The position numbers and the translations under genes were made by a program. Shown here piece after piece: positions 6,905 to 46,159 of a DNA stretch of 50,179 nucleotides. The DNA lies in assembly GCA_963676915.2 (NCBI GenBank), contig CAXXVK010000017.1:1-50179 (forward strand), written 5' to 3'. How positions within the stretch are numbered: the first letter of the stretch is position 1; each line of letters starts with the position of its first letter. A model generated the notes under the pieces. That model was not told the DNA's origin, ran no database searches, and saw nothing but the letters and a program-made list of their open reading frames with translations. The stretch is from Myxococcota bacterium (lineage in GTDB: Bacteria; Myxococcota_A; SURF-8; G963663525).

Positions 6905-6912
6905 GGCAGGGA

Positions 6913-28483: not shown

Positions 28484-28627
28484 TCCGGGGAACGAAGCGG
28501 TTAGAAGACCTTTTGTAAAAATGCTGGTTGATTTTTCTTGCTTCCTCGCCTAGCATCCGATAAGTTCACCAGCGTTTGATTCAGGTCAACAATAACCTAT
28601 CTCATCATACCCGAGTCAAACAAAATA

Positions 28628-28704: not shown

Positions 28705-28711
28705 AATAAAC

Positions 28712-28746
28712 AAAGGCATTTCGTATAGTTACGGAATGCCTTTTCT
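28712..28746 (+). terminator. Element-supplied terminator downstream of tRNA-Pro
   Basis: AAAGGCATTTCGTA-tagt-TACGGAATGCCTTT hairpin followed by a T-rich tract. Confidence 0.75.
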
Positions 28747-28770
28747 TTTCTTCTGCTTCCTTTTTTACGT

Positions 28771-28791
28771 ATCGTCGCAGCATCGTCGCAG
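28771..28791 (+). repeat. Putative integrase arm-type sites (left)
   Basis: ATCGTCGCAG-C-ATCGTCGCAG; the same motif recurs four times at 40751-40810. Confidence 0.75.
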
Positions 28792-28928
28792 TGGGGCAGG
28801 ATTTAATAATTTGCCTTGACAAATAACAACAGTCCAGCATATCCTGGATACACTGTTCTTTAGAAACGATTTACCCACCAATAACCGGCCATCATAGTTT
28901 AGACATAGCTCGGCCCAAAGGAGAAGCT

Positions 28929-29198
28929 ATGACTAAACTGTCTGTAATCAAGCATTTCACAACTTCACTATTAGCAAAGCGCCTTCATTTGAAAGAACAA
29001 ACGTTGCGGCACTGGCGCATGATTGGTTGTGGCCCGAAGTACATTCGAATCGGGGGCAGGCGTGGCCGCTGCCTCTATCGATTAGAGGATGTCGAAGCTT
29101 GGGAAGCCCAAAGGATTTTTAGCAATACGACCGAAGAGGCTCAAAAAGGCGAAACCATCGCAAACTCTGTGCAAGCAGAAGGGGGTGAGCAGCGATGA
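28929..29198 (+). CDS. AlpA/excisionase-like HTH protein
   Basis: LAKRLHLKEQTLRHWRMIGCGPKYIRIGG..CLYRLEDVEAWE. Confidence 0.85.
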   Translation: MTKLSVIKHFTTSLLAKRLHLKEQTLRHWRMIGCGPKYIRIGGRRGRCLYRLEDVEAWEAQRIFSNTTEEAQKGETIANSVQAEGGEQR

Positions 29199-31330
29199 AA
29201 CCGCAAGAAGCTTACGAAATTGGACTATCCATAATTCCCTGCAATGCAGACAAGACCCCAATGGTGAAATGGAAACCGTATCAAACCAAACCAGCCGAAA
29301 GAGGATTAATCAAGAAGTGGTTCGAAAAGAACCTATCTATGTGGGCCATCGTGACCGGATCAGCTAGTGGGGCCAGTGTCCTGGACTTCGATGGAAAAGA
29401 GGGAAAAGCTTTAGTGGAACGGTTTGGTATTCGTCCCCACGTTCAAACCCCGAATGGATTCCATTGGTACTTGGAATACGACCCACGCCTCAAGACAGTT
29501 GCGGGGGTTAGAAAGGGCTTGGATTCGCGTGGCAACGGTGGCTATGTCATCTTCAGTTCGAACGTCAAGGGGAAAGACTACAAATGGCTCCGGCCTTTCG
29601 AACCAGACCCCATTGAATCCCTTCCGCAAGAACTCGCCAAAGATTTGGGGTTGGAAAAGGATAGGCCAAACAAGGTTTCTTCTGCTGGCTTGGTTCAATG
29701 GGCATTGAAGCGAGTCAAAAAAAGCGGTGGAAGAAACAATGCTGGTTTTGAGCTTTGCTGTCAGCTCCGGGACAACCGAGTACCTTTGGAAGAGGCTCGC
29801 AAAGCTGTTCTCGAATTTCAAAACCAATGCCCGGATAAAAATGCATCAGGGGAAAAGCAAGCCTATAGCGAAACAGAGGCGCTTAGAAGCCTAGAGCAAG
29901 CGTATTCGGGCAATGTACGAACCCCCTGGGGACATGATTTAGAAGAACTCGCCGTAATCCAAACAACCGATTCTGGTTTTTCCAGTCTCTTCAGGGAATG
30001 CTTTGGGAATTTACTTCTTTATTCTTCTTCTCTTGGTTGGCTCCGTTATTCCGGGCAACTCTGGCAACAGATTGACCTTTGCGCCTTGATTCCTTGGGCG
30101 GAGCGCATAGTAAAAGACTACATCAACCAGATGCTTGAAGGTCTGGACCCGGGAAGCTTCAGCAGCCAGGATCTTAAGCAGGCGTTGAAATTCCTTCAGA
30201 GGCCAAGGCTTGAATCCATCGTCAAGCTTTCCGCTGGCTATATTCTGTGCGAACCAAACGAATTTGACAGACATGAATTGTATCTCAACACTCCCTCTGG
30301 CGTAGTTGAGCTTGAAACAGGCAATCTTGTTCGTCATGATCCCGACCTTCGCTTCAGAAAAATGACGAATGCCCCTTTCAGCCCTGATGCCGAATACCCA
30401 CGTTTCGAGCGCTTTCTAACAGAGACGTTTCAAGGCGATGAAGAATTGATAAATTTTTTCCAAGTCGCAATGGGGTACACGCTTACGGGGCTTAGTTCCG
30501 AACGTGCGGTTTTCTTTTGTCACGGTTCGGGCGCAAATGGCAAAAGTGTTCTGTTTCGTGTATGCGCGACTGTCTTGGGTTCTTACGCTTCGGCAACGCC
30601 TGTTAGAACGATCCTGACACCTGCTCAAAGCGATGCAATCAGGAATGACCTAGCTCGGCTTGCTGGCGCTCGGCTGGTAACGATTTCGGAAAGCCCCGAA
30701 GATGCCGAGCTTGACGAATCCACAGTAAAAGCTTTAACAGGCGGGGATAAAATGGCGGCACGATTCCTGAACAAGGAATATTTCGAATTCGTGCCTTCCT
30801 TCAAAATCTGGGTGGCGTTGAATGATTTGCCAGCGATACGAGGTCGTAACGCTGCGATATGGTCACGAATCAAGGCCGTTCCCTTTTCAAACGTAATCCC
30901 TGAAGCTAAACAGGATAAGAAACTTGACGAAAAGCTTTTGGAGGAAGCACCAGGCATACTTCGCTTCCTTGTTGAAGGTGCAAGGGAATACCTAAGGCTT
31001 GGTAAACTGCCTTACTGTCAAGCGGTTGAGAGGCATTCAGCGGAATATCAAGCGATGCAGCGGGGAACAAGCATCAAAAGCTTTCTTGAAGAATGCACCG
31101 AACAAGAAATGTTTGCCGAAACGAAGGCGATGTATCTTTATTCGGCCTATCGCGTGAGATGCGAAAAGCTAGGCGGTTCTCCTTTGTCTATTACTGCGTT
31201 CGGTAAAGAAATGGGTAATCTCTGCGAAAAGCACAGAACGGCAAATGGCGTTGTTTATCGTGGGGTCCGCATCAAAGGCATTGGGGATACCACTTCAGGC
31301 ATGGATGCAGAGTATGTTCAGTTTGAATAG
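29195..31330 (+). CDS. Bifunctional primase-polymerase fused to a P4/D5-type SF3 helicase
   Basis: N-terminal Prim-Pol motifs (VLDFD, TPNGFHWY, DSRGNGGYV), GRNN, LNTPSGVVEL, Walker A GSGANGKS, VKALTGGD, ARFL. Confidence 0.92.
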   Translation: MKPQEAYEIGLSIIPCNADKTPMVKWKPYQTKPAERGLIKKWFEKNLSMWAIVTGSASGASVLDFDGKEGKALVERFGIRPHVQTPNGFHWYLEYDPRLKTVAGVRKGLDSRGNGGYVIFSSNVKGKDYKWLRPFEPDPIESLPQELAKDLGLEKDRPNKVSSAGLVQWALKRVKKSGGRNNAGFELCCQLRDNRVPLEEARKAVLEFQNQCPDKNASGEKQAYSETEALRSLEQAYSGNVRTPWGHDLEELAVIQTTDSGFSSLFRECFGNLLLYSSSLGWLRYSGQLWQQIDLCALIPWAERIVKDYINQMLEGLDPGSFSSQDLKQALKFLQRPRLESIVKLSAGYILCEPNEFDRHELYLNTPSGVVELETGNLVRHDPDLRFRKMTNAPFSPDAEYPRFERFLTETFQGDEELINFFQVAMGYTLTGLSSERAVFFCHGSGANGKSVLFRVCATVLGSYASATPVRTILTPAQSDAIRNDLARLAGARLVTISESPEDAELDESTVKALTGGDKMAARFLNKEYFEFVPSFKIWVALNDLPAIRGRNAAIWSRIKAVPFSNVIPEAKQDKKLDEKLLEEAPGILRFLVEGAREYLRLGKLPYCQAVERHSAEYQAMQRGTSIKSFLEECTEQEMFAETKAMYLYSAYRVRCEKLGGSPLSITAFGKEMGNLCEKHRTANGVVYRGVRIKGIGDTTSGMDAEYVQFE

Positions 31331-31405
31331 TCTGGAGGTAAACCGCAGGAAATAAGGCATAGAAATGAATCCGGGGAAGCCTACATACTCTACAAAGCCT
31401 ACAGG
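31306..31405. repeat. Candidate replication origin (opposed iteron arrays with 9-bp period)
   Basis: Degenerate TG-initiated units at 31306, 31315, 31324 and 31333 (TGCAG, TGTTC, TGAAT, TGGAG) face CTACA units at 31381, 31390 and 31399, at the end of the primase gene. Confidence 0.5.
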
Positions 31406-31508
31406 CTTCAAAAAGGTTCGATCCCCGGATTTTCGTCAACGAACAACGGCACTGGTTGTGTTCCTCATGGAATGCGTCGAAAATGTCACCTGTAGAATAG
31501 AGGTTAAA

Positions 31509-31790
31509 ATGAACAGTCAAAATGCTTTGGGTTTCGTGCTCGAACACAAGAACGAGAGAAACACGCGACGCTATTACTACTGCCCTGCTTGTCTTGTGAA
31601 AAAGCTGGATGCACACAGAAAGCCAATCGCGCCGATTTACAATGAACAGGATCTTCATGAAAAGCGTTGCTGCGGTTGCCATAGATACTATTTCAACGGA
31701 TGGCGGGAAGATCTTGGCTACCATCAATGGAAAGCCAGTTTGAAAAACAGGGCTATTTGTAGAAAAAAGACAACGGAAATAGCTCCTTGA
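31509..31790 (+). CDS. Small hypothetical protein with two Cys clusters (CPAC, CCGC)
   Basis: In frame with ORF 31365-31790; GAGG SD before ATG 31509. Confidence 0.5.
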   Translation: MNSQNALGFVLEHKNERNTRRYYYCPACLVKKLDAHRKPIAPIYNEQDLHEKRCCGCHRYYFNGWREDLGYHQWKASLKNRAICRKKTTEIAP

Positions 31791-32430
31791 GCAACGGAAT
31801 AAGTGCTTCTTTCCGGGCGGTTTGGTGAATTCTTGAGGCGATGGGGTGAACTAATAGAAGAATCTCCTGAACCGGCAGGAAAAACGATCTCGGCATTTTT
31901 TGTAATATTCTTTTCATGAGGTATGGAATATTCTGTATTATTTCAGTAGTTTACAGAGAAATTCCTCTGCCAATTATTCGTAGAAAACTCCGTGCTGCAT
32001 TTAGTGTGCAAGTGAAAAGGTACGGATACGCCTGTATCGTCGCAATAAAAAAGGATATTCGAGTGGGCTTACTCCTCATTGTCGGCAATTCTAAAACCAC
32101 TTCAACCTTGAAGCAGATGTAAGGTTTCAGGCAAAAAGTTTTCTTTCTGCTCGCTCAGCTTTTCTGCTAGAATCCGTTGCGAAAGCAAGCATCTAGCATT
32201 TCCTGAAGGCTCAAAAGTACGTGAATTTAAGACCTATTTATTGGTTTGTGCCGGTTCATAGAATAGACAAGGGAAAAACGAATGTCAGCAAAAGAGATAA
32301 CCGCCTATTTGCGGAAAATTGAATTGAAATTCAAAGCAGGGAATGCAACGGAACACACGCACAGACCAGCCTTGCAAGAATTGATTGGCCGCTGAAATAA
32401 TTTTCAAGAATAAATAAAGGGGAAACCAGA

Positions 32431-33867
32431 ATGGGCATTACCATTACCAATGATGGTCCTCAAACCATTGGCGCGATAAAGGAACATTTTGAATACGGCA
32501 ATATTTTTCTTTCTCCCGATGAATACCAGCGCGAGAATGCTTGGAATATACCGCAGAAAAAGCTTCTGATTGATACAATATTCAGGGGCATGGATGTTCC
32601 GAAATTTTACCTTTGGAAGGTTAATCACCAAACGCTAAAAGATGGTGGTTATCCAGATGGCGATTTGAAGGATGAATACAAGCGCATCCTCGATGATCGG
32701 CTTGTCAATCAGAGTGAAGTGGACCCACATATCTATGAAGTAGTTGACGGACAACAACGAATCCGCACGATCTTGGAATATATGGGGGTTGAACCGCCTA
32801 ACGATTTTGTTTATAGGGGAGAGTGGCTAACACCGTTCCACTCTGAAGACGATACACCTAACGCCAGCGGCAAGCTATTCAAGGAATTGAATCCAAATCA
32901 AAGGATGGTCTTTACTCAGAAAAATCTTTCCGTTGTAATACTTGAGAACTCCCATATTGACGATATCCGCGATATGTTCTTGAGGCTTCAAAACGGTACA
33001 CCTTTGAATGCCCAACAGAAACGCGATGCAATGGGATCAAACTCAGGAAGAGCGGCAAGAGAACTGGCAGAATTGCCGTTCTTCACGAAGTCCGTCAGCT
33101 TCGGAAACACAAAGTCTGAGCATCGCTGGGTTGCTTCGCAAATGCTCAATTTGGAAGTGAAGCGCGATTTCACAAGCTGTACCTCGCCAATGCTTAATAA
33201 ATTTTACGAGGATTACAAAAGCAATGAAATTGAACCTGCTGTTTCAGACAAGGCCAAGCGGATACTAAAAATGCTCGGCAAGATATTTCCAGATAGAAGC
33301 CCGTACCTTAAAAACAGAGGCTATGCGCTAAGTCTGTATTGGATACTTTCAAAGATTCTGAAGGACTATAAGATTGCCCCCTCCCAGTACCCTAAAATAC
33401 GAGAGAATTTTGAGCGCTTTGAGGTAAGGCGCTTGGAAGCGATGAAGCGTGATTATAAGCGCAAAGGCGATGATATTTATCAAAACCTCAGCTATTACTT
33501 CTCAAGAAGTACAGACGCCAAAGACGCAATTACCGAGCGCCATACGATCATAACACAACCATTGTTTGAAAACATAGCTCTTGAAGAATTGCCTAACCTT
33601 GATCCTAATAGAAACTTCTCGGATGAAGAAAAGATGATTCTATACTACCGATGCAGCGGACGTTGCCAGATGGAACATAACGGCAAAGTGTGCAACCGAA
33701 AAATCGACTATGAAGATGCGGCAGTCGATCACATAACACCGCACAGCAAAGGCGGCAAAACTGAACTCAACAATGGTCGAATTGCACACAAGCTCTGCAA
33801 TATTGCCAGAGGTAACAAGGATAGCTTTGATCCAGAAACGCAATGCCATTTCAAAGAGACTGAATAA
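32431..33867 (+). CDS. DUF262 (ParB/Srx-like) + HNH endonuclease, GmrSD-like
   Basis: YQRENAW, VVDGQQR, FLRLQNGTPL; C-terminal C..C...DHITPHSKGGKTELNN...HKLCN. Confidence 0.88.
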   Translation: MGITITNDGPQTIGAIKEHFEYGNIFLSPDEYQRENAWNIPQKKLLIDTIFRGMDVPKFYLWKVNHQTLKDGGYPDGDLKDEYKRILDDRLVNQSEVDPHIYEVVDGQQRIRTILEYMGVEPPNDFVYRGEWLTPFHSEDDTPNASGKLFKELNPNQRMVFTQKNLSVVILENSHIDDIRDMFLRLQNGTPLNAQQKRDAMGSNSGRAARELAELPFFTKSVSFGNTKSEHRWVASQMLNLEVKRDFTSCTSPMLNKFYEDYKSNEIEPAVSDKAKRILKMLGKIFPDRSPYLKNRGYALSLYWILSKILKDYKIAPSQYPKIRENFERFEVRRLEAMKRDYKRKGDDIYQNLSYYFSRSTDAKDAITERHTIITQPLFENIALEELPNLDPNRNFSDEEKMILYYRCSGRCQMEHNGKVCNRKIDYEDAAVDHITPHSKGGKTELNNGRIAHKLCNIARGNKDSFDPETQCHFKETE

Positions 33868-34391
33868 TGAAGTCTAAACAGCCATCCAAGGCGATGATAA
33901 GCACTGCCTACCATGAGGCTGGTCATGCGGTAATGGGCTTCATGCTCGGTATTCGAATTCGGAATGTTTCCATTGTCCCTGATGAAAGCACTTTCGGCAG
34001 AGTTGAACACTCTTCCCCTTTGAAGAGCATAAATTTAGAAGTTGTGGATAAAGCAGACTATTCAAGATTTCGTATGGAAAAGAATGCTATCATGGCCTTT
34101 GCAGGAGCATTAGCGGAAAAGAAATTCAATCCACATGGATTCCGAAAGGTGTGGTCTATTACCGACTGGGAAATTGCATCATCTCTAATCGAAAGATACT
34201 CAATTTCACCTGAGGAACACAATGCTTATGTTAAACTCCTCCAGATTCGTGCCAAAGCCTTGGTTGAAGTATACTGGCCCGATATTGAAGACTTAGCCTC
34301 TCTTCTTCTTGAAAAGGAAAAGCTTTCAGGAAAGGCTGTTAGGAAATTTATTGAGTTAAATCCTGTTGAAAGAAGGCGGCTAACGAAGTAA
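33867..34391 (+). CDS. Stand-alone Zn metallopeptidase (FtsH/M41-like HEAGH domain, no AAA+)
   Basis: TAYHEAGHAV...AGALAE...D; its ATG overlaps the upstream TAA (TAATG). Confidence 0.75.
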   Translation: MKSKQPSKAMISTAYHEAGHAVMGFMLGIRIRNVSIVPDESTFGRVEHSSPLKSINLEVVDKADYSRFRMEKNAIMAFAGALAEKKFNPHGFRKVWSITDWEIASSLIERYSISPEEHNAYVKLLQIRAKALVEVYWPDIEDLASLLLEKEKLSGKAVRKFIELNPVERRRLTK

Positions 34392-34434
34392 AATAATCGA
34401 AACGTGCAATTAGAGAGTGTTAACCGCATTCCTT

Positions 34435-35604
34435 TTACTCACACGAAGCCGTCCAATTTCCGGTTTCTGTGCAGATTTCTTCCCCTTCGCAGGTTTGATA
34501 TTCGACCCAACGCCCGTACTCATTGCAGACTTGGACGCTGTTTTGCTCGCAAGATTGCCACTTTGGAGCACAATCGAACACGCGCCATATTCCATCATCG
34601 GACCACGTAGTATTCTCTTGAATCGTGCCTTGATGCGCGTTGTTCCCGGAATCCATTACAATTGATCCAGAGCCTTCGTTGAAATGCCAGAGAGCTTCAG
34701 TGTCCGAGTCCACTTCGTAACGAAAAGCCGGGGTGAAATTCTCTGTGTATTTCGTCTCACTGGAAAGCTTCACTTCATCGATAATCCCGTTAAAGAAAAA
34801 TCCCACATCGTCGCCCCCTTTGCCGATATACGCTCTTGGTGGAATTGTTGGGAGATCGATCGATGTGGTTTCGGTTTCTCCCATTTGCCTGCCATCAACA
34901 AAAATGGTGTAGGTATTTCCGTCTCTTACTCCCGCTATATGGTGCCAAGCGTCAGGGGAAATCGCTCCGGCGTCCGTGGTTACACGCCGTTTTAAATTTG
35001 TTGTGCGGTCGAAGTCTCCAAACGAAACCGTTCCATCAGCGCGTATGTTCACCCAAAGAGAGGCCCAATCAAGATATCCTTCGCCGTATACGGCTCCACC
35101 GTCTTCGGCATTTTCAAACCAGAAAATCCATGCTTCGACAGTATATTCCTGCAATCCGTATAAAATAAACTTCTCCCCGAAATCCACCCATCCCGTCTGT
35201 CCATCGAATAGCAAGGCTGTTTCGACGTTGCAGGATTCCCCTTCGCAGCCAATAGGACCGCATTGGACAGGGAGCAATTCTTTGCTACCTAGGTCGTTGC
35301 ATTGGTGAAGCTCGGTTCCTTCGCACCATTTTTCGTCTGGATTGCAGACTTTTTCATCTTCAGAATCGATTTCAGTTTCCGTGTCAGAAATTTCAATTTC
35401 GGCTTCGTTTTCCATACGATCCGAGTTTTCTTCCTGCTCCGTGTCGCCGCCGATGGATGGTGTATCGGCTTCGTCTTCCAACTCGGAATCTCCGTCAAAT
35501 CCAGAATCACCCGTATAGGTGACTTCGGAATCGGAACAGCCTCCAAAAATCAGGACAAGGGAAAAAATGGAAAAAAGCATCGTTTTGCGTGAAATCACCT
35601 GCAT
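34435..35604 (-). CDS. LamG/concanavalin-like domain lipoprotein
   Basis: Lipobox FGGC, D/E-rich linker, YTVEAWI, WHHIAGV, FNGIIDEV, LWHFNEGSG; Cys-rich flanks. Confidence 0.85.
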   Translation of the reverse strand: MQVISRKTMLFSIFSLVLIFGGCSDSEVTYTGDSGFDGDSELEDEADTPSIGGDTEQEENSDRMENEAEIEISDTETEIDSEDEKVCNPDEKWCEGTELHQCNDLGSKELLPVQCGPIGCEGESCNVETALLFDGQTGWVDFGEKFILYGLQEYTVEAWIFWFENAEDGGAVYGEGYLDWASLWVNIRADGTVSFGDFDRTTNLKRRVTTDAGAISPDAWHHIAGVRDGNTYTIFVDGRQMGETETTSIDLPTIPPRAYIGKGGDDVGFFFNGIIDEVKLSSETKYTENFTPAFRYEVDSDTEALWHFNEGSGSIVMDSGNNAHQGTIQENTTWSDDGIWRVFDCAPKWQSCEQNSVQVCNEYGRWVEYQTCEGEEICTETGNWTASCE

Positions 35605-35609
35605 TTTTC

Positions 35610-35760
35610 AGCACCTCCCATAGCGCGGTTGACAGTCAGCCTAAAAAGAAACGGGGCGACACAGAACCAGCCAAGCCCATTCAGTGCGCCCCGCCCAAAG
35701 AGGCGCACGTGTGCTCAGCACGGCGCGTATGGGAGCGCGTCGAGCTTGGCTGTTTGTCTG
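35610..35760 (-). promoter_or_regulatory. Candidate structured 5' leader of the LamG gene
   Basis: Several long complementary segments, one of which pairs with the GGGAGG Shine-Dalgarno (see findings). Confidence 0.5.
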
Positions 35761-36028
35761 CTTCGACAATCCGAGCGTATCCGATCACGGGTGAGCAGTC
35801 CGCCAGCCCCGAAGGGCAAGAAACGCACGTATCGCATGAAGCGTATCGATTGTATCAAGATTGCTTCTGAATTCCAGAAGAATTTCCAATCTTTAAGAAA
35901 AATCAGCTTTTTTTCTTGTTGGTATGTTCCTGTTCTTGACTGACGAGGAAATTCCGAATAGTTTGTGATCAGAGGATGCGGGCAAGAAAAAACAAGCTCC
36001 AAATCACGTGCTTTTTTGTTGCAACTTT

Positions 36029-36052
36029 GCTATAATTATACTTAATTATAGC
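36029..36052. promoter_or_regulatory. Operator-like palindrome upstream of the sce7726-like gene
   Basis: Perfect 10-bp inverted repeat GCTATAATTA-tact-TAATTATAGC, with TATAAT on both strands. Confidence 0.6.
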
Positions 36053-36074
36053 TTCAATACTAAACGATGGATCG

Positions 36075-36653
36075 ATGAAAGATTGTGATATCAGGCAAGT
36101 TTTGCTCTCGGATTTAGAGCGGAAGTATGGAAACGATCCCGACACCATTGTCGTTGAAGAACTTGGTCTTTGTCAGGGAGAATCAAGAATCGATATCGCC
36201 GTTATTAACGGTACTATGCACGGAATTGAGATTAAAAGCGACGAAGACACCTTGAAACGTTTGCCAATTCAGATGGAATTCTACAATCGATCATTCGATA
36301 CCGTTACTTTGGTTGTCGGCAGCAAGCATTTGAAATCTGCAAGGCAAATCATTCCGAAATGGTGGGGTGTGGTTGAAGCGAAAGAAAATGGAAATGAAAC
36401 CACCTTGACCAAGCGGAGAAAAGATAGGAAAAATCCCAAGCTAGACCCCGAAGCTATCGTTCAGCTTCTTTGGAGAGATGAAGCAATCGAAATTTTAAAA
36501 AGAAGAAACCTTCAACATGGGTATATTAGCAAGACCAAATGGGAGATATTTGACAGGTTGATCGAGAAATTGTCAGTCTTTGAAATTCAGAGTGAGGTTA
36601 GAAACCATCTCAAATCACGCGAGAATTGGCGATCTGATTTGCAACCAGTGTAA
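36075..36653 (+). CDS. sce7726-family protein (PD-(D/E)xK nuclease-like)
   Basis: VEELG...RIDIAVING..HGIEIKSDEDTLKRLP.Q...Y...FD...P.WWG. Confidence 0.75.
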   Translation: MKDCDIRQVLLSDLERKYGNDPDTIVVEELGLCQGESRIDIAVINGTMHGIEIKSDEDTLKRLPIQMEFYNRSFDTVTLVVGSKHLKSARQIIPKWWGVVEAKENGNETTLTKRRKDRKNPKLDPEAIVQLLWRDEAIEILKRRNLQHGYISKTKWEIFDRLIEKLSVFEIQSEVRNHLKSRENWRSDLQPV

Positions 36654-37710
36654 GATGATGATTTGTTCCTATTTTTCTCCAGGTAGTTAAATTCCCTGGA
36701 CCTTTACTTCCAATACGGCAATTTTGTATGTACCAATCCCCAAAAGAAAATTGCGGAGGGTAGAATTTTGCGTTAGTACGAAGTTGTTGGGCGAGATTAT
36801 AAAATTGCTTAAAATCTCTGCTCATTCTTCCGTTTATCTTCTTCTTAGTACCGCCACCTTTTACTATTAACCACGTTTTTTCAAGTGTGTAGCGGATATT
36901 GGCACTAGGATTCATCCTAAGATCGAAGTCAAGTATTTCAGGGTTGCAAATCCCATAGTCTGAATATACAGGAAGTGGTTGGATGCCTTTTTTCTTCGCC
37001 TGCCGCAATACCTTCTCCCACAGAACGATTTCATTTCTTGGGATTTCCTCTATCGAGTGAGTACTAACCCCACCCATGTGCTCTGGAAAACCGGATGCTG
37101 CTAAAATCACTGATTTCCATTTGTCGATTCCTTTAAAATTCTTCAGGAAATCTATGACATCGCTTAATCTATCAGAAATTTCAGTTTCTTCTAAATGCCT
37201 GATATCAAGCAATAAATGCGACTCGCTTTCTTTGGCCTTGAGGTCAGACAACAGTGATTTTAACTCGACTGATGAGGCTTGAATATTTTCGATGTCTTCT
37301 CTTAAAAGGCGAAAAAGTACGCCCCGGCCATCAGCTTTAATAGTTTGAGCAACAGCTTGATTATAGGCAGTGTCTCTATCGAGTCCGGTGACTGGAATTG
37401 CAATTACACCCTCCTGACGCATCCTGTCGAAAGAGTATTTAACATAATGCATTTTTTTTGATGTCCTTTTGTCTAGTCCAATGTCGTAATAGTCAACAAA
37501 GACAGGTCTATCAATTCCCCAATACCTTCTCATGTCGATTGCTTTATTAGAAAGATATTCGTCGAACCGGCTTTTCCATCTATCCTCTGGTCTGGGGATA
37601 TCAAAAAATGGGGTGAATTTAGGGCGAATATTTGGCTCCAGCTCTTTTAAAGCCCAAAACTCGCCTTTCTTGCCCTTCAAGATGGGAACGTAGTGCTTGT
37701 GACTAAACAT
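36610..37710 (-). CDS. Beta-family protein (phage P4 beta / sce7725-like)
   Basis: YVPILKGKKGE..AL, IPVTGL, ASGFP, YSDYG, ANIRYT...W, W.KIGTNHHL. Confidence 0.75.
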   Translation of the reverse strand: MFSHKHYVPILKGKKGEFWALKELEPNIRPKFTPFFDIPRPEDRWKSRFDEYLSNKAIDMRRYWGIDRPVFVDYYDIGLDKRTSKKMHYVKYSFDRMRQEGVIAIPVTGLDRDTAYNQAVAQTIKADGRGVLFRLLREDIENIQASSVELKSLLSDLKAKESESHLLLDIRHLEETEISDRLSDVIDFLKNFKGIDKWKSVILAASGFPEHMGGVSTHSIEEIPRNEIVLWEKVLRQAKKKGIQPLPVYSDYGICNPEILDFDLRMNPSANIRYTLEKTWLIVKGGGTKKKINGRMSRDFKQFYNLAQQLRTNAKFYPPQFSFGDWYIQNCRIGSKGPGNLTTWRKIGTNHHLTLVANQIANSRVI

Positions 37711-37720
37711 ACTTTACTCC

Positions 37721-38929
37721 TTATTTCCAAGTGACATCTTTAAAGAGTTCTCGCACCTTTCCTGTACCTACCATATTGCTCAGAATATAGTAGTTTTTGG
37801 TATCGTGCCGAATTCTGCCCGCGACAATGGAAGGATGAATCTTCAGTTGAAGGGCAAGCTGGGTAATTGCATCGGGAGTTCGTTGGCGAAAAGCATCACT
37901 GCGCTTCCAAATCGAACGAGGAATCAGGGTTTCTCCCGTAATTCTATCGGCTTCTCGTTCTCTCGGATTCCTGCCAGAATCCGAATCGAGGTCATCAATA
38001 AAAGCCTCTTCAGTTCCTTTCAGGTGCTTCCATACATGAACGAGTTCATGAATCAAATTATACCAGAAGTTGTCAATCCTGTCATGACGAAGAGTTAATC
38101 CAATGACAGGATTGCCACTGTCGGCAATCATTGCAGCACCGTCAAGATGGGTTTTCGGTAAATGGGGTTCAATTACAAGAGCGATTCCGTGCTCAGTGAG
38201 GTGTTTTTGCGCGTCAAGTGGACCGGTTGACGAAAGGCTCAATTCAGCGACCCTTTTCAAAAAGCCTTCATCGATAGTAGTTTCCTTATATGGCACAAGA
38301 TCCATCTCACTGGCCGCAATCAATACCTGTGCTGTCCATGCCCAAAGAGCATAGGTATCCATTTTCTTTCCAGACCGCTCAACTAGCGTTCTTCGACAGA
38401 AAACGGGGGTTTGCCCAACGCCACCAAGAGGCTTGAAAAAGCTTTCAATTAGCTCTTGGGTCTTGGATTTGATTTCTTTAGCGCTGGCTTCAATCCATCC
38501 TCGCTTTACCATTTCTTTAACCGGGAATTTCTCCCATTCAATTTCGCTTGAATCTTCAATTTTTTCTGGTGCATCTTGAACCAGAACTTTCAATGGAATT
38601 CCAAGTCCTTCATGGAGCGCCCGAATCATGGAAACGGTCAAAGCGCGTTTACCGCTAAGAACCTCGGAGACCTTGCTTTTTCCACCAATAAAGGGAACCA
38701 AATCCTTCTGGCGCAAGTTCTGTTCTTCCATCCGAAATCGAATCGCTTCAAGCGGGTTTGGCAAATCGAACGTATACCGCTCAGATTCATATTTTTCGAC
38801 AAGAACGGAAAGAAGATCGAGTTTTTCCGCTTCTTCGCTACCGGGTTCAGGATCAAGGACAATCAGATTCTCAATTTCCTCCATTGCTTTTTTATAGCCT
38901 GCTTCGTTTTTTATTACTCCCAGAGTCAT
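37721..38929 (-). CDS. HigA-type HTH antitoxin fused to an ImmA/IrrE metallopeptidase
   Basis: N-terminal LVEKYE..P.PLEAIRFRMEEQNL.QKDL...VSEVLSGKRAL; C-terminal LRHDRIDNFW..LIHELVH...E.EAD. Start ATG 38929 follows GGAGG. Confidence 0.9.
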   Translation of the reverse strand: MTLGVIKNEAGYKKAMEEIENLIVLDPEPGSEEAEKLDLLSVLVEKYESERYTFDLPNPLEAIRFRMEEQNLRQKDLVPFIGGKSKVSEVLSGKRALTVSMIRALHEGLGIPLKVLVQDAPEKIEDSSEIEWEKFPVKEMVKRGWIEASAKEIKSKTQELIESFFKPLGGVGQTPVFCRRTLVERSGKKMDTYALWAWTAQVLIAASEMDLVPYKETTIDEGFLKRVAELSLSSTGPLDAQKHLTEHGIALVIEPHLPKTHLDGAAMIADSGNPVIGLTLRHDRIDNFWYNLIHELVHVWKHLKGTEEAFIDDLDSDSGRNPREREADRITGETLIPRSIWKRSDAFRQRTPDAITQLALQLKIHPSIVAGRIRHDTKNYYILSNMVGTGKVRELFKDVTWK

Positions 38930-38945
38930 GGCTTGACCCTCCTCC

Positions 38946-39236
38946 CTATAGATCCCATCGGTCATATTCCGCATGGGTGCCTAGCTTTTGTACTTGGATG
39001 ATTCCCAATTTGTAGGCTATCGCCGTTAGCATTCTATAGGCATTTCCTTTCACGTTGAAAATCACCCTATTGTTGTCAAGGATGCTTGCAGATGGATATC
39101 TCTGTTTAACATCATCGGGATTTTGCCATCTCGTATCTTTATCTTCTATTTCCGCCAACCACGCTTCTAACCAAACTTTTGAATCTGCGTGTTTGCGTAT
39201 GAAGTCTTTTGTCTTTTTCTTCCCGTTTACTCGCAT
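38946..39236 (-). CDS. higB: HigB-family toxin (RelE-like RNase)
   Basis: W.NP.DVKQRYPSASIL..RVIFNVKGNAYR...GTHAEYD. Confidence 0.9.
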   Translation of the reverse strand: MRVNGKKKTKDFIRKHADSKVWLEAWLAEIEDKDTRWQNPDDVKQRYPSASILDNNRVIFNVKGNAYRMLTAIAYKLGIIQVQKLGTHAEYDRWDL

Positions 39237-39267
39237 CTGCAAAACCTCTTCGGTTCATCATGGAAAC

Positions 39268-39320
39268 ATCATAACATGTTCCCGTATTGAGATCAAGTTA
39301 AAAGTTCTAATTAGGGGAAC
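39268..39320 (-). promoter_or_regulatory. higBA promoter with two putative antitoxin operators
   Basis: Minus strand reads TTGATC, 17 bp, TATGAT with an extended TG. Related imperfect palindromes GTTCCCGTATTGAGATC (39278-39294) and GTTCTAATTAGGGGAAC (39304-39320). Confidence 0.55.
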
Positions 39321-39544
39321 TATAAATAAGAGGTTTCTAGTCGTCGGTTTTTGTTGAAGAATTTATGTTAGTCTACTGGAAATTCTTTTTTTTAAGCGCA
39401 CTGGCGAGTTTATTCAGCTTCTTCTTGGTGATACCGTCAATCGATTGGTGTTCGTCTTGATCTAATCAAAGCATTGTTATTTGAAATGAACTGAAGGATG
39501 AAACATATTTACCACAAATCACGATAACGCGAATAACTTCAAAG

Positions 39545-40705
39545 TTAGCTATTTCCTGCCTTCCTAAAGGGCAAGATCTTCGCATCATGCTCTTCAACTG
39601 CACCCCTGAGGTCTTCTACATTAAAAGGAGCGTATACTTTCGCTGTAATCGAAATATCAGTATGGCGAAGCAATCGGCTAGCGACGTGTAAACCTTTTTC
39701 ACGCGCAATTGCCAACCCAAACGAGCGCCGAAGATCATGGATATGAAGGTCGAGCAAGCCTGTTTCTTGTTGTAGTCTTTTCCAAGGTCGTTTCAAGTCA
39801 TGGCGGTGCTTTTCTGGATTTCGCCCAGGAAGAACGTAGGGACCAATGCGAGGTAGGGCATGAAGCATTTCACAGATGGATGGGGTTATAGGAATGATTT
39901 GCATTCTTCCTGCTTTTGTGGAAGGTAATCGCCACACTTTCGTATCAAAATCGAAATCTTCCCATCTAGCTCGTAAAACTTCACTTCTTCGCGCACCTGT
40001 CTGTACTAAAAGCATAAAAGCAGCCCTTAGATGTTGATCTTCAAGTTCAGAAATAGCAATAAGCATCTTTGTTAGCTCATTATCCGTCATTACCCTGTCT
40101 CTAGGTGGATTTTCTGGAAGCTTTTCAACCTTTAACGTTGGATTGGATTCAATGCTTCCTAAACGCCAAGCTGCTTGTAAACATGCCGAAATTGATGCAT
40201 GAAAGCGGTTTGCGGCGGTTTTGTGTCCAGACTCAACGATTTCGTGATAAAATTTACTAATATCTCCAGCTGTTATTTCAGAAAGAGCTTTTTTCCCCCA
40301 TCGTTCAATAGCCCAACCAAGATAACGTTTATCTTCTTCAGGACGTTTTTTTCTTTGCGAGACATTCTTTAAATACTCTGTTGCCCACTCTTTGAGCGTT
40401 TGTTCTGATCGTTTCGTTTTTCGTTCATCAAGGGGGTCAGTACCCGAAAGGATATCTGCAAGCTTTTGTTTCGCTAGTTGACGTGCCGTTTCAGAGGTAA
40501 GTTTTCCGTATTGCCCTAAGGTCATGCGACGGCGGCGAGTAGTTTTGCCATATTCAACAAAGAAACTTTTTCGCCCGGATGGATAAACAATAATACCGAA
40601 CCCTTTAAGAGATTCATCATAGTAACGGATTCCCCGCGGATTGGTTTCCAAATCGGGTAATGGCAAGCTTTCAATTTTCTTACGTGTCAGTTTAACAATT
40701 GCCAT
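39545..40705 (-). CDS. Tyrosine integrase of element 1 with N-terminal arm-binding domain
   Basis: LTRKKIE..D..LKGFG..V.PSG.KSF N-terminal domain; catalytic GARRSE, HDLRR, LRH and Y; next to attR. Confidence 0.93.
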   Translation of the reverse strand: MAIVKLTRKKIESLPLPDLETNPRGIRYYDESLKGFGIIVYPSGRKSFFVEYGKTTRRRRMTLGQYGKLTSETARQLAKQKLADILSGTDPLDERKTKRSEQTLKEWATEYLKNVSQRKKRPEEDKRYLGWAIERWGKKALSEITAGDISKFYHEIVESGHKTAANRFHASISACLQAAWRLGSIESNPTLKVEKLPENPPRDRVMTDNELTKMLIAISELEDQHLRAAFMLLVQTGARRSEVLRARWEDFDFDTKVWRLPSTKAGRMQIIPITPSICEMLHALPRIGPYVLPGRNPEKHRHDLKRPWKRLQQETGLLDLHIHDLRRSFGLAIAREKGLHVASRLLRHTDISITAKVYAPFNVEDLRGAVEEHDAKILPFRKAGNS

Positions 40706-40750
40706 TTTCTAAAATCTCCTGACCTGAAAGCTAAAATTCAGCTGGCCGTG

Positions 40751-40810
40751 TAGTCGCAGCATCGTCGCAGCTAAAAATGGAAAGATCGTTTCGTCGCATA
40801 ATCGTCGCAT
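40751..40810 (+). repeat. Putative integrase arm-type sites (right)
   Basis: TAGTCGCAG, ATCGTCGCAG, TTCGTCGCAT, ATCGTCGCAT arranged as two tandem pairs. Confidence 0.75.
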
Positions 40811-40918
40811 TAATAAAGCAACACTGACAACGAACAGGAAACCCCAATACACCTTGATACTACTGGTTTTTATTAATTTTGTCAACATGAAAGAGTAACG
40901 ATAAAACGTATGGCCTAG

Positions 40919-40966
40919 TGAATGGGGTTCAGGGGGTCGGAGGTTCAAATCCTCTCGCTCCGACCA
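40919..40966 (+). repeat. attR core (duplicated 3' part of tRNA-Pro)
   Basis: 48-bp identity with 28657-28704; the 5' part of the tRNA is absent. Confidence 0.95.
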
Positions 40967-40972
40967 GTAATT

Positions 40973-41007
40973 ACAGCCACTTACGTTAATTCGTGAGTGG
41001 CTGTTTT
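40973..41007. terminator. Terminator hairpin between attR and the second integrase
   Basis: ACAGCCACTTACG-ttaatt-CGTGAGTGGCTGT followed by TTT. Confidence 0.7.
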
Positions 41008-42226
41008 AGTTCTCCTGACACAATTTGACACAAATTGACGACGTTTTCTCCGCGAGAGAACGAACGGTGGGGTCGGCATGGTGGACCAAAGCATCGGCTT
41101 GAAGCTTCAATGCCTGTAATTCCGGATCAATGAAAGCGGCTTCCATCTTCTTCTGCATCCAAAGGATATCCAAGTGACCGTAAGTGTCGACCGTCGTCCC
41201 GATTTCGGTGTGACCCAGGACAGCCTGGGCGAAGGCCATGCCGCCCGACTGGATGAGTCGTGTGGCACATACATGGCGAAGGTCGTGAAAGCTCAGTCTG
41301 GATGCACCGGCAGCTTTGCAGGCGTTCTTTAGACGTTTATTGATATCCCCCCGGAACGTTGGAAACAGAAGGGCTCCAGGCTCTTTATCTTCCAGTGCAG
41401 GGCGGATGAATGGCACCGCTGGGTCGGGAATGGGACTTGGGCGTGGATCTCCGGTTTTCGTATCTCCCATCTCGTCAATGGCTTCTTCGCCATACAGCCT
41501 CGTGCACCCACCTTGGACATAGAGAATACGATGCTCAAGATCGACATCCTGAACTGTAAGGGCCATGACCTCTCCCAAGCGTAGGCCGCAGAACATGCCT
41601 ATCGCGATCGCAGGACGAGTGGAATCGCTTGCGCATTCACAGATCCTTATCATCATGTCCACACTGACCATGGGGATGATTTTCTTATTTCGCTTGTGGG
41701 TGTAGGTCCATGGGGACTTTTGGATATGCCCGGCTTTTGTAGCGCCATTCAGCAAGATGGAGAGGAAGCGACTGACGTGATCCCGTGTGCCATTGGTAGC
41801 AATGCCAGCAAGGACCAGCTTAATGGCTTCCTCGTCGATGCTAGCGAGGTCCAACTCCCGCAGTTCCTCGGGAATCTTCGACCAGCAGTATTTGTAATTG
41901 GCAACCGTTTTGGGTGCGAGTTTCTGGTATTTTTCTTCACTCCACTTTTCGTACCAGGTATCCAGGCTCATGGAACTCTTGGAGACCAGCGGTATACCGG
42001 AGTTGACTTCCTGGGCCAGAATCAAGGCTCGTTCGTAAGCGGTTTCCAAATCCTTGCCCAGGCTTTTCCATATCTCTTTGCCATTTCGGCGGTAGCTGAA
42101 TTGAAAGGCTCCCGACTGCTTGCGATAGCGCATGCGACAGGGGAAAAGCTGGCGGTTCATTTGCACCAAGCGACGCTGGGTTGATTTGGGGAGGTCTACA
42201 GTTTTCGCCTTACTCGTCTTCGCCAT
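41006..42226 (-). CDS. Tyrosine integrase of element 2
   Basis: GLRLGE, TKTG, FHDLRH, LGH and TY catalytic motifs; 3' end abuts the att site. Start taken at MAKTSK. Confidence 0.9.
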   Translation of the reverse strand: MAKTSKAKTVDLPKSTQRRLVQMNRQLFPCRMRYRKQSGAFQFSYRRNGKEIWKSLGKDLETAYERALILAQEVNSGIPLVSKSSMSLDTWYEKWSEEKYQKLAPKTVANYKYCWSKIPEELRELDLASIDEEAIKLVLAGIATNGTRDHVSRFLSILLNGATKAGHIQKSPWTYTHKRNKKIIPMVSVDMMIRICECASDSTRPAIAIGMFCGLRLGEVMALTVQDVDLEHRILYVQGGCTRLYGEEAIDEMGDTKTGDPRPSPIPDPAVPFIRPALEDKEPGALLFPTFRGDINKRLKNACKAAGASRLSFHDLRHVCATRLIQSGGMAFAQAVLGHTEIGTTVDTYGHLDILWMQKKMEAAFIDPELQALKLQADALVHHADPTVRSLAEKTSSICVKLCQEN

Positions 42227-42640
42227 TCTTTTCCTTTTCACATTCATCTTCCAGTTCATTCAGAAGAAACCGGATATAATGTTGAGCTTGTGGAACGTCT
42301 TTATAATCGCCGCTTCCTGCTTTCAGGTCTTTCATCTCCCTTGTAAACCAGATCTTTACCAACTCTTTGTCGTGAAAATGTCTGTACAAAGATTTAATGG
42401 TATTTCGAGTCTGCAAAAAGCCCATCTTTCCTACGGCATTCAGATCACGGAACCAGTCAATCAAATCCTTCTCCATCTCATTGAGTTCAGGATTCGGTTG
42501 TTTGCTCAGTTCCGCCCCAAGGTCAAGTCCATGAAGCTCACTGATGGAAATCTGGTAAGCGTTTGCCAATGAAACGAGATCGCTAAAAATCGGGCTGGTT
42601 TTCCCGGACTCGATTCCGAGATATCGCCCTCGCTTGTAGG
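42210..42640 (-). pseudogene. 5'-truncated XRE-family repressor
   Basis: Extending ORF 42210-42569 upstream in frame gives KRGRYLGIESGKTSPIFSDLVSLANAYQISISEL, the second half of an XRE HTH. There is no start codon or first helix before an in-frame stop. Confidence 0.55.
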
Positions 42641-42742
42641 AAAATCCCTCAGTTCGATATTCGCCGTGTGGGGAATCGGGTGATGGTGACGCGAGAGAGT
42701 TTGTTCAAATTTCTCTGCGGAGAAAAGGAGAAAGATATTTAA
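42641..42742 (+). pseudogene. 5'-truncated excisionase-like (HTH_17) fragment
   Basis: KIPQFDIRRVGNRVMVTRESLFKFLCGEKEKDI* resembles the Xis wing and terminal helix; no upstream start. Confidence 0.45.
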
Positions 42743-42782
42743 GCAATTCCCTATCACTATTATAACCATCTTTAAAAAAAAT

Positions 42783-44396
42783 GTGCTCATGCCTAAAAAT
42801 CCCGAAACCACCGAAATTCGCGACATCCTGGAAAACCGGTTCTTCCATCAACTCATCGATCAGGATATCCCTAGAGAGGACGCCGAAGCCATTGCCTACA
42901 AATCTGTCTCCACAGTCCTGCAGGCCTGTTTTCACTTGGTCAAGGAGAAGAAATACAAGTGTGCCGTTCTTGGCCGGTGGAGGGTGCTCGTCAATGCGGC
43001 GATATCCACCTCATGGCCGATAGAAGATGATCTCCAGATCGTCGCCGAATGGTGCCAGGACCAGTTATCGCAGCGCCCACCGGATGAATGGGTCGAGGAG
43101 TTCGTGTCTAAAGCCAACTTGACTTGGGTGGTTGGTGATCCTCCCATTGTCAAAGACGGACGGATAAAACTGTCTGTTGCAGCATGTGTGGTGGTTTATG
43201 AAGCCTACTTTCAAGTCTTGGAGGGTCGCGAATTGGAAGCCATTCGAATTGGCACGGATAAGGTTTGCTTCTCATTCTACATGGCACTGAATCATGGCGC
43301 TGACCCGAACAGCTTCTGGATCGCCTGGAATGAGAGAACGAGTAAGTATGAGATCTTCGACAAAACGAGGAATGGGTACCCGATACGTCTTCCTGCTACG
43401 GTTTTCGTAAGGACGGCAGCCTACCTTGTGGGTAAGGACGGTAAGTCTCATTTTGAAGCACTGGATACCTCTACCCCTTCCGAGTTCATGGAGCAGGATA
43501 CGGATGAGTCGAAGGACGTGAAGGCACTTCAGAAGCGCTTTTTTGGCCCGTTCGCTATTCGACTGTGGGCGGCCTTGCTTGCAAATGGCCAAGATGGAGA
43601 ATTCGATTTTGATCCTGAGTACACGTTAGCTCTTATGCACTACTCCAAACGCTATAGACGTGAACCTAAAGTGCAATATGAGATCAGATTGCTCGTGAAC
43701 CTGTTTAGGCACTTTAATATTCGCCTTGGTGCGAAGGATGATTATTTTGATCCTGTGCCAATCAAAACCAAGGAAGATAAGTACTCAGATCCTTTTTTTG
43801 AGCTTAGTCGACTGTCTACGATAAGGCCTGAATTGATCTCTGGCGCTTCCAAAGGTGAATATTTCCTGTTACCGGCGGATTTGTGCAACATAAATCACAA
43901 ACCATTACCTCACGTCTACCCTCTGTCCTTCTTTCTTGCGGTGATGTTTCAGCGGGCGTTTCAGTACGGGAAACAATGGGTTGAAGTGTCTGGAAAGAAG
44001 CTCTTGATATTGGCTCGCGAGAAGAAGTACACCAAGAAGATCCGCAAGGCGCTTCAGACCTCAATGGATATGTTGGTAAAAGCTCAAGTAATCGACCATT
44101 ACGAATGGCGGAACTTTCCTTGGTCCCCAGGTGGCACCATCCGTTTCGAGGCTCCTCGCTGGGTCGTTGAGCGCCTCCTGTACGGGATCGCCCCCATCGA
44201 GCCGGTTTATGTTTATGCTCCTGATACCGGAGAAGCCCTCCGTAATTTCCGGAAGCAGATGTCCCTTACTCAGGATCAATTGGCACAGCTTGTCGGAGTC
44301 AACCGGATAACCATCATCCGGTACGAGAAGGCCGAAAGTATTCCGGAGAGGTTCATTGACAAACTGGAAGCCTGGCAACTTGACATTGCGAAGTAG
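42783..44396 (+). CDS. Hypothetical 537-aa protein with C-terminal XRE HTH (possible replication/DNA-binding protein)
   Basis: C-terminal ALRNFRKQMSLTQDQLAQLVGVNRITIIRYEK; the rest is not recognised. Confidence 0.7.
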   Translation: MLMPKNPETTEIRDILENRFFHQLIDQDIPREDAEAIAYKSVSTVLQACFHLVKEKKYKCAVLGRWRVLVNAAISTSWPIEDDLQIVAEWCQDQLSQRPPDEWVEEFVSKANLTWVVGDPPIVKDGRIKLSVAACVVVYEAYFQVLEGRELEAIRIGTDKVCFSFYMALNHGADPNSFWIAWNERTSKYEIFDKTRNGYPIRLPATVFVRTAAYLVGKDGKSHFEALDTSTPSEFMEQDTDESKDVKALQKRFFGPFAIRLWAALLANGQDGEFDFDPEYTLALMHYSKRYRREPKVQYEIRLLVNLFRHFNIRLGAKDDYFDPVPIKTKEDKYSDPFFELSRLSTIRPELISGASKGEYFLLPADLCNINHKPLPHVYPLSFFLAVMFQRAFQYGKQWVEVSGKKLLILAREKKYTKKIRKALQTSMDMLVKAQVIDHYEWRNFPWSPGGTIRFEAPRWVVERLLYGIAPIEPVYVYAPDTGEALRNFRKQMSLTQDQLAQLVGVNRITIIRYEKAESIPERFIDKLEAWQLDIAK

Positions 44397-46159
44397 GGGG
44401 CTTTAGTCATGTCCACGATACCATCCAGGAAATTGGCTACAAAGCCCCCCAAATCTGAGAACCCCACGTGCACATTCCACCCGCTGAACACTCTGCCGGT
44501 CACGGTGTTTGTGTGGGTAGCCCTTAAATAGAGAGGCATAGAAAATGGTTGTCACGAAGGACTCCAGTTCCTTGTAGACAGGTAACTTGCTGTTATTACA
44601 ATTGATTCTCTCCGATCAGCACACTCTACCGTACATTTCTGAGAAATACACCCACATTTTGTGATACAAAACAAGGAACTGATGCTCATTCGAGTGTAAC
44701 ATTTCGAGGAAATAGCATGAATTCTCGTTCTTCGAGGCAATTTGATCAATTCCTCCTTGCTTTCCGCTAAATGTTCCCACCGTTTCGGATGTACTTCCAG
44801 GATCTGTCACATGAACCTATGGTTCATTTCCTTAAAATGTTACATTTCTCTTTTAGAGAAAATCATAGATTTTCCTGTAAAATCAACAGATTATCATCGG
44901 ATAGAAAGGGTGGGAGTTCTCGATGATGGATTTATTTCCCTGTCTATCTGGGGAAGGGGTACGTGGCACCCTCGATTGGTAGAGTTCTCTCGGGTGATCC
45001 TTCTCGGTGGAGTCCCGGAAACGTGGACGGCAGGGGCAGCAGGTTCTACCCTAGCTATCAACTCGGGTGCCTTGACAAGACGGTGAGTGGGGTGCGCCCG
45101 AAACACGAGAACGTCTACCGCACCGTGCAGATCTCCCTGGTGAAGTCCCACGAGTACGGATTGGACCTGGATGGGTTCGGGCTCTCGAATACCACTGATG
45201 AGCCCGTTGTCACTAGGACTCCGGAGGGGACGAACATCATCGTGCTACCGTCGCAAGCGGAGGATAACCTCCCTCGAAGTCTGCGGCGAAGACGGTCCAG
45301 ACAATCTCGCTCGCGCTCCAGGAGGTGATGCAGTGTGATAACGCCGACGTCGGTACAACTGAAAAGTTGCGTACCGGTGCATCGGCGTCGGCGGGAATTC
45401 TCGCTGCCCGACTGGAAGACTCTGGCTGATGGAAGGTTCTACCATCACTGGAAGACTCTCACCGGCGTTGGTTTGGAAATTCTGCATTCTGGTCGGACCT
45501 AGCCTTGTCTGTCCCCGAGGGGGGTAGGTATTTCATTTTACGCAATTTATTAGTTAAGTCTTTGATATCATTCAGGAGTACACTCTACAACTTATCCATT
45601 AAAAAAAACGATATTGCGACGTCGGAGTTAGAGTGTTCCACCAACAAGTAAGTAATCCGAGGTGATGCTGATTAGTTTCGCTACCGACGTCGGGTACTTC
45701 GTTTACGCCGAGGGCTGTGGGAAACGATAGGGGTCCCAATCGTGCGGAACCCCCCTGCCCACAACCGGATGCATTTGGGAGGCAAATCGCCGACAACTAC
45801 GACAGCTTGTTTGTTGGTGTCCGTCCGTATATACGAACCACCGTTTTCACCAACCTGGTCCGTTCGTCAAAACAACGGTCAATTTTCCATATCTTCCTTC
45901 ATAGAAAAATGAAATCTGGTTGGGAAAATGGCGTTCTGAGATTTTTGAGGATTTTTACGCGCAGGAAGGTTCTCCTTTGGTGCTTGGTGGGCTGGAGGCA
46001 TCGCCTTTGCAAAGAATTTACGTAGACAGACAAACTCGTTCCTTTGAAACGCATGCATCAGATGACGACTTGTACGAAAAGGATGGATTCATGCCTTCCT
46101 TTACAAAGATAGATTTGTCTATGATACGAGAGCTAATTTGTGGTAATCATGGGCTTTTA

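Follow-up and report, generated by a model that had tools for sequence, protein, structure and literature searches.

PD-lambda-2 of Escherichia coli is described by Vassallo et al. (2022, PMC9519451) as an abortive defence system in which the HigA-peptidase encoded by gene B is toxic on overexpression and is rescued by A (HigB), while C (beta) is dispensable for neutralisation and required for defence, its deletion being viable. Satellite phage P4 carries the gop-beta-cII locus, which gives protection from lambda and P1 (Rousset et al. 2022, PMC9122126) and for which a phage gene acts as the trigger (Silas et al., bioRxiv 10.1101/2023.04.06.535777). In the absence of beta, its antidote, Gop is toxic (Ghisotti 1990, as cited in PMC9122126); thus the roles reported for beta differ, antidote in P4 and required part in PD-lambda-2. 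A preprint on TIM-B systems (bioRxiv 10.64898/2026.10.19.760177, October 2026) outlines a layout of HigB or other effectors, a helix-turn-helix (HTH)-metallopeptidase, the TIM-B protein and a convergent, overlapping restriction endonuclease (REase). Here we analyse a cassette of four genes, higB, higA::immA, beta and sce7726, in a stretch of 50,179 nt from a Myxococcota bacterium (contig CAXXVK010000017.1, forward strand; the window, to which all coordinates refer). The locus is almost certainly a PD-lambda-2 system joined to a beta-cII dyad.

Three of the genes lie on the minus strand. The first, higB (38946-39236/39242), encodes a predicted RNase of the RelE/HigB family related to PD-lambda-2A. 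It is followed after 16 bp by higA::immA (37721-38929, 402 amino acids (aa)), whose ATG start codon is preceded by GGAGG (the longest open reading frame (ORF) begins at 38974), and after a further 10 bp by beta (36610-37710, 366 aa). The fourth gene, the P4 cII-type sce7726 (36075-36653, plus strand, 192 aa), converges on beta with a 3′ overlap of 44 bp (36610-36653). All four ORFs, their gaps and the overlap had been noted in a first-pass annotation of this DNA and are present in the sequence; the families it proposed are borne out by profile matches to Pfam PF09907 (HigB_toxin, 88 bits), PF06114 (Peptidase_M78, 25 bits) and PF14350 (Beta_protein, 232 bits) and to NF033832 (sce7726_fam, 191 bits). 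PADLOC identifies HigB as PD-Lambda-2_A (126 bits), HigA::ImmA as PD-Lambda-2_B (530 bits), beta as PD-Lambda-2_C (206 bits) and the sce7726 protein as cll, that is cII (106 bits). It gives no gop match at the locus, where the genes 5′ of beta are higA::immA and higB. The gene identities, the layout, the element that carries the cassette and a conserved operator (see below) are directly established. The annotation was right in proposing a defence cassette and in naming the sce7726 family, which it had framed as half of an sce7725/sce7726 pair; it missed that sce7726 is P4 cII (the RefSeq name for P4 cII is sce7726 family protein), that higB-higA::immA-beta is the published PD-lambda-2, and that the layout had already been described. 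The cassette is likely a phage-defence type already on record, carried by an integrated mobile element, and not a new system.

The reading we favour, with a probability of roughly 0.45, is abortive infection: a signal that depends on beta would activate the fused peptidase, repression would be lifted and HigB set free, and cII would serve as a second effector that is not essential. HigA::ImmA and HigB would initially bind the operators, keeping operon expression low and HigB inactive. Infection would be relayed through beta, a required positive component whose enzyme fold would serve to sense infection or to generate a signal, possibly with single-stranded DNA (ssDNA) as a co-signal, as for CapP-type peptidases. 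The peptidase would then cut the HigA-like part, so that repression is lifted, HigB is freed and translation stops; cII, expressed from its own promoter, would be a second, dispensable DNA-nicking effector inherited together with beta. We are led to this reading by the A/B/C order of the PADLOC matches, the abortive nature of PD-lambda-2 and its need for C, the intact peptidase, the retention of R68 and H88 in HigB and the conserved operator. It is favoured further by the constancy of the acidic residues of beta with or without cII, the ImmA-type gene preceding beta in 42 of 80 loci, the ssDNA precedent of CapP and the E. coli locus that has no cII.

Several observations weigh against it. In the one homologue tested it is HigA::ImmA that is toxic and HigB that rescues (PMC9519451), and P4 beta behaves as the antidote of Gop (PMC9122126). 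In the portions of the literature examined, self-cleavage or an activity of HigB, beta or cII is demonstrated for no member of the family. Of 61 metagenome loci with HigB-HigA::ImmA, 37 have no beta, so that beta is not a universal trigger. Finally, a kinship of beta to transglycosylases cannot be separated from its being a generic TIM barrel; the link to these enzymes drawn in the preprint is compatible with the predicted fold and unconfirmed.

The toxin and its partner were compared with their relatives. In an alignment of 108 HigB proteins, the protein encoded here retains N61, G64, N65, R68, T87, H88 and Y91; the first six are conserved in 81-94% of these relatives, and we infer that the conserved residues are catalytic. 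R68 and H88 are both kept here, in all 18 other four-gene loci, in 69 of 71 loci without beta and in 14 of the 18 loci that have beta but no visible cII; the four beta-linked exceptions form one clade together with the E. coli protein. The higA::immA product fuses a HigA-like HTH to an ImmA/IrrE zinc peptidase, with HELVH at residues 294-298 and E324. The HExxH peptidase motif is intact, and H294, E295, H298 and E324 are invariant across 60 homologues.

For the E. coli side of the comparison we used a locus (L092) that a primer from the supplement of PMC9519451 matched in a single genome among 5426 of E. coli. Together, its ORFs A, B and C cover 2625 bp, as do the ECOR42 coordinates, and because of this equal span the locus is taken as a close match of the tested system, not as ECOR42 itself. 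A blastn search of E. coli genomes with the higBA studied here gave no match. No cII is present at the E. coli locus, the next gene lying 251 bp away and giving no match to the cII profile. Since, in addition, the cloned PD-lambda-2 region had flanks of only 387-396 bp (PMC9519451), cII appears unneeded for defence in E. coli. Its HigB lacks N61, G64, N65, R68, T87 and H88, while its HigA::ImmA is 43% identical to the one encoded here over 400 aa. One could suppose that the polarity is reversed at our locus as well, with HigA::ImmA killing the cell and HigB inhibiting HigA::ImmA. This has behind it a direct result for the 43%-identical protein, but that result came from overexpression, and the E. 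coli HigB is without the six residues that most relatives have and that are kept here. We regard this alternative as quite improbable: with the conserved residues lost in E. coli and kept here, the polarity is perhaps different, and the reversal seen in E. coli may not apply.

The region upstream of higB (39268-39320, minus strand) contains a candidate promoter and two candidate operators. The promoter-like site, TTGATC-17-TATGAT (−35 at 39296-39291, −10 at 39273-39268), is no better than chance when taken alone, as 7 such sites were found against 7.0 expected. Its −35 box is overlapped by the palindrome GTTCCC-N5-GGGAAC at 39278-39294, of which a second copy lies at 39304-39320. Allowing up to 2 mismatches, the palindrome precedes higB in 11 of 15 loci, E. 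coli included, compared with 19 of 2940 random windows and 9 of 4500 shuffles; the motif was derived from the same 15 loci, which makes the test partly circular. In the E. coli locus, too, the palindrome occurs twice upstream of higB. Thus, of the single autoregulated promoter that the annotation had postulated, the conserved operator lends support to autoregulation while the promoter box itself does not stand out, and the higB operon is probably autoregulated through binding of the HigA-like HTH at these candidate operators. A higB-type operator (up to 3 mismatches) was not found upstream of cII. There, a candidate extended −10 promoter, TGCTATAAT, can be read at 36028-36036 (plus strand); of 15 related cII genes, 9 are preceded by a looser match to it, a count that has no control set. 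A promoter-like site inside immA (38085-38057, 11/12 match) was rejected because it stems from W-Y-N codons that are unique to this locus among 16.

Beta was examined by structure prediction. The model (predicted local distance difference test score, pLDDT, 95.9) is a TIM barrel ("TIM-B"). At least 92% of 187 sequences share each of Y7, E17, D73, R134, D169, D251 and H352, a pattern of polar residues as expected of an enzyme, and the acidic ones are the same whether cII is present or absent. The longest alignments among the 50 listed structural matches are to two tRNA-guanine transglycosylases (TGTs), with 272 and 262 residues, Z-scores of 11.0 and 11.2 and root-mean-square deviations (rmsd) of 4.6 and 4.4, their Z-scores being tied with those of unrelated barrels (best 13.0). 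In the model, barrel strands 3 and 8 terminate at D73 and D251. The ends of these strands are, we presume, the site of the TGT catalytic aspartates, a correspondence of position and not a residue mapping onto beta. A search of PDB sequences with the beta profile returned no significant match, the matches listed by Foldseek were generic TIM barrels alone, and when the beta profile was compared by hhalign with profiles from 30 TGT loci the result was null.

The cII model (pLDDT 93.6) is best matched by 3dnx (Z 10.4, rmsd 3.3, 133 aligned residues), which we take to be of the MmcB family, and also by other PD-(D/E)XK nucleases. MmcB has no demonstrated enzymatic activity according to the part of PMC13705206 consulted. 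Residues 120-183 match SAP domains (a C-terminal SAP/HeH-like domain), and E29, D40, E52 and K54 occur in 186 of 186 sequences, part of which were picked by a pattern containing ExK. With this fold and the E..D..ExK motif, cII is a predicted PD-(D/E)XK nuclease, as the annotation had anticipated in calling the gene nuclease-like. The protein is 28% identical to P4 cII over 174 aa. These folds invite a further alternative, a stand-alone attack on DNA in which beta removes or exchanges a base in phage DNA, cII nicks at that site and the peptidase-toxin head is set off secondarily by the damage. The nuclease fold and SAP-like domain predicted for cII, the length of the TGT alignments and the rarity of the head among the 75 viral beta-cII pairs, 74 of which were seen without ImmA and all of which were seen without HigB, speak for it. 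On the other hand, the tied Z-scores and the null profile comparison fail to single out TGTs, and the E. coli defence works without cII; we give this scheme little credence.

The overlap between beta and cII bears on a different possibility. Overlaps were present in all 78 beta-cII pairs from GTDB genomes, where they measure 20-173 bp and 76 of them are in the same phase, and in 72 of 75 viral pairs, 64 of them in that phase; the arrangement is not due to chance. At the locus studied, a codon map places conserved cII residues R182, W185 and R186 opposite beta residues 360-365. A conserved overlap is what one might find if beta constantly restrained cII, the upstream effector or both, loss of beta or its product freed them, and the overlap coupled the transcripts, a nested toxin-antidote arrangement close to that of the first-pass annotation and also proposed in bioRxiv 10.64898/2026.10.19.760177. 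The toxicity of Gop without beta (PMC9122126) is in keeping with it, as is the asymmetry, typical of a toxin and its antidote, that cII is rarely without beta (4 of 79 viral loci) and beta often without cII. However, the overlap codes for conserved residues of both proteins, which is enough to preserve it, so that its persistence needs no antisense role; moreover, P4 beta and cII do not overlap, being separated by 27 bp and an annotated terminator. Deletion of C from PD-lambda-2 is tolerated but abolishes defence (PMC9519451), which argues against beta being an antidote only, with the caveat that this locus has no cII for beta to restrain. The antidote role that the annotation had assigned to beta has its precedent in P4 Gop only, beta being needed in PD-lambda-2 for defence and not for neutralisation, and we think this arrangement somewhat unlikely. 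A complex prediction for beta with cII (score 0.00, mark 0.32) speaks neither for nor against contact. Co-divergence was rejected as a marker singling out beta-cII, since over 26 loci the Spearman coefficients are alike (beta-cII 0.57, beta-ImmA 0.53, cII-ImmA 0.61).

To place the cassette among its relatives, gene neighbourhoods were collected from four samples. Among the best 80 of 196 GTDB loci anchored on beta, a convergent cII is found in 78, the other two reaching a contig edge. This sample is biased, one scan pattern adjoining the beta/cII overlap, and 78/80 was rejected as a family-wide rate, the pattern-free sample giving 3/6. The latter comprised 401 genomes of the phylum, seven of which have beta; of the six besides this one, three have cII, two have higB-higA::immA-beta without cII and one is broken. 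The best 80 of 191 viral loci anchored on cII, near-duplicates kept, show a convergent beta in 75, no beta in 4 (of 79 readable) and a cut in 1, with ImmA in one locus and HigB in none. Anchoring on HigA::ImmA (best 80 of 568 metagenome loci, 19 cut downstream and 61 usable) gave beta with cII in 13, beta only in 6, beta with unreadable cII in 5 and no beta in 37. From 80 viral HigA::ImmA loci, 52 weak matches were dropped; the 28 kept comprise 2 with beta and cII, 3 with beta only, 2 with beta and unreadable cII and 21 without beta. A single-sequence scan of viral contigs with beta gave no match. The four-gene form recurs in several phyla, in line with the linkage that the annotation expected, but it is not one fixed unit, since beta and cII accompany only 13 of 56 fully readable metagenome HigA::ImmA loci. 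The cassette consists of two separable modules, beta-cII and HigB-HigA::ImmA, which are often joined. In one viral locus (L003, Mycolicibacterium phage Mycofy1) an unannotated cII gene at 4899-5552 overlaps the annotated beta gene.

Within the GTDB sample, the ImmA-type gene preceding beta in 42 of 80 loci stands behind exchangeable toxin-like heads. HigB of the present type with HigA::ImmA accounts for 8 loci (7 with cII, 2 of these 7 with split higA::immA) and one cut locus, another RelE/HigB-like cluster with HTH-ImmA for 15, DUF6932 with HTH-ImmA for 10, a protein that looks GNAT-like by eye with ImmA for 3, and ImmA with a cut or unresolved head for 5. The remainder have FRG (12), membrane-helix proteins judged by eye (3) or other or cut heads (23). 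The FRG genes lie directly upstream of beta-cII (L029, L034, L037, L044, L051, L053, L056, L057, L068, L071, L073 and L076), and FRG is not among the effectors named in section 33 of the TIM-B preprint (bioRxiv 10.64898/2026.10.19.760177). A FastTree phylogeny of 171 of the 187 beta proteins (near-duplicates and fragments excluded; midpoint root, weak backbone, no clade test) distributes 9 cII-less tips, mostly within cII-bearing clades, over 6 parsimony changes (shuffled mean 8.8) and 36 PD-lambda-2-type tips, one of them (L011) mislabelled, over 6 changes (shuffled mean 32.9). This tree, whose set is enriched for cII-bearing loci, suggests that cII was lost repeatedly. A bolder idea, which we hold to be unlikely, is that PD-lambda-2 and gop-beta-cII share a single beta-cII chassis and differ in their heads, the E. 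coli form of PD-lambda-2 being reduced (cII lost, HigB degenerate); in the full four-gene form, beta would be a base-acting infection sensor that switches on the fused peptidase-antitoxin and so frees an active RNase, with cII as second effector. If true, this would overturn the notion that beta is an antitoxin and imply a new sensing chemistry.

The cassette adjoins the tyrosine integrase (39545-40705) of a 12.3-kb integrated element (28657-40966) that also contains an HTH gene, a primase-helicase and cargo, and is bounded by identical 48-bp att repeats at 28657-28704, within tRNA-Pro, and 40919-40966. The G+C content is 44.3% for the element and 42.5% for the cassette, compared with 52.0% for the genome. 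The first annotation's reading as a defence cassette is upheld, and the cassette lies on a mobile element. None of the sequencing runs was listed as holding RNA. Contigs of 4 sequencing runs contained no excision joint; read depth is higher on the element's contig, which is not a copy number. Lying next to an integrase, in an element of low G+C whose att repeats are intact, the cassette might serve mainly for addiction or maintenance of that element. Both related systems stop phage, however, and a toxin-antitoxin pair alone would suffice for this role, which we consider highly unlikely as the main one. The element encodes a second candidate defence pair (32431-34391, plus strand), made of a 478-aa GmrSD_N and HNH protein (PADLOC NsnA, 84 bits) whose stop codon overlaps the start of a gene for a 174-aa M41-like HExxH peptidase. 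Its cargo includes a 389-aa LamG (concanavalin-like) protein with a lipoprotein-like N-terminus (34435-35604, minus strand). A GC-rich non-coding segment upstream of cII (35699-35870) recurs once, at 77% identity, on contig C53, close to what by eye is probably an IS200-type transposase; both copies end in TGTATCAA. It is possibly an IS200/IS605-type end or an RNA remnant and has no Rfam match, tRNA being the sole Rfam match over 28500-46000; the predicted RNA fold of 35620-35860 is not significant (z −1.7). A second tyrosine integrase gene starts 40 bp past attR and precedes that of a 537-aa protein in which only a C-terminal HTH is recognised (41006-44396); these genes probably belong to another element inserted in tandem at this tRNA. 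Elsewhere in the window, the host backbone carries a mevalonate-pathway-like cluster (3929-8037, minus strand; two GHMP kinases, a diphosphomevalonate decarboxylase and an FMN-dependent enzyme), and an 18-bp tandem repeat (49148-49273) lies within a 419-aa ORF without Pfam match.

Compared with gop-beta-cII of P4, the locus shares a toxin-like head, beta, a convergent cII and residence on an integrative element with a primase. It has no gop, its beta and cII are 20% and 28% identical to those of P4, and P4 cII is longer (264 aa) and, as noted, separate from beta; unlike in P4, no capsid-redirecting genes were recognised in the element. With the CapP-CapH, IrrE-DdrO and ImmA-ImmR switches it has in common an M78 zinc peptidase and an HTH repressor domain, here fused and paired with a predicted RNase. 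For CapP, ssDNA is the activator and an HTH repressor the substrate that it cleaves (PMC13228613); ssDNA activation would apply to the present protein by analogy only. The features of the sequence fit a classical type II HigBA pair, the tested E. coli homologue having the opposite polarity. The TIM-B systems of the preprint have the same layout, including an REase with C-terminal HeH, and the PF14350 TIM barrel that defines them is found here; that work is computational only and proposes TIM-B as a constitutive negative regulator. A link between the four-gene layout and PD-lambda-2 was not found in print, the term being absent from the main text of the preprint, whose supplements lay outside the search. 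The likeness to PD-lambda-2 extends to the same three genes, their co-orientation, order and sizes, the operator palindrome and the Pfam families of Table S4 of PMC9519451, with identities to the E. coli match of 27% (HigB), 43% (HigA::ImmA) and 24% (beta). The locus differs from that match in its convergent, overlapping cII and in the HigB residues that it keeps. To what was described before, the comparison adds the operator palindrome over the putative higB promoter, a complete-looking HigB as opposed to the degenerate E. coli one, and an E. coli match that is without cII. Since none of the four genes is disrupted here and HigB is apparently complete, the locus may offer a better construct than that of E. 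coli for studying toxin polarity and the role of beta.

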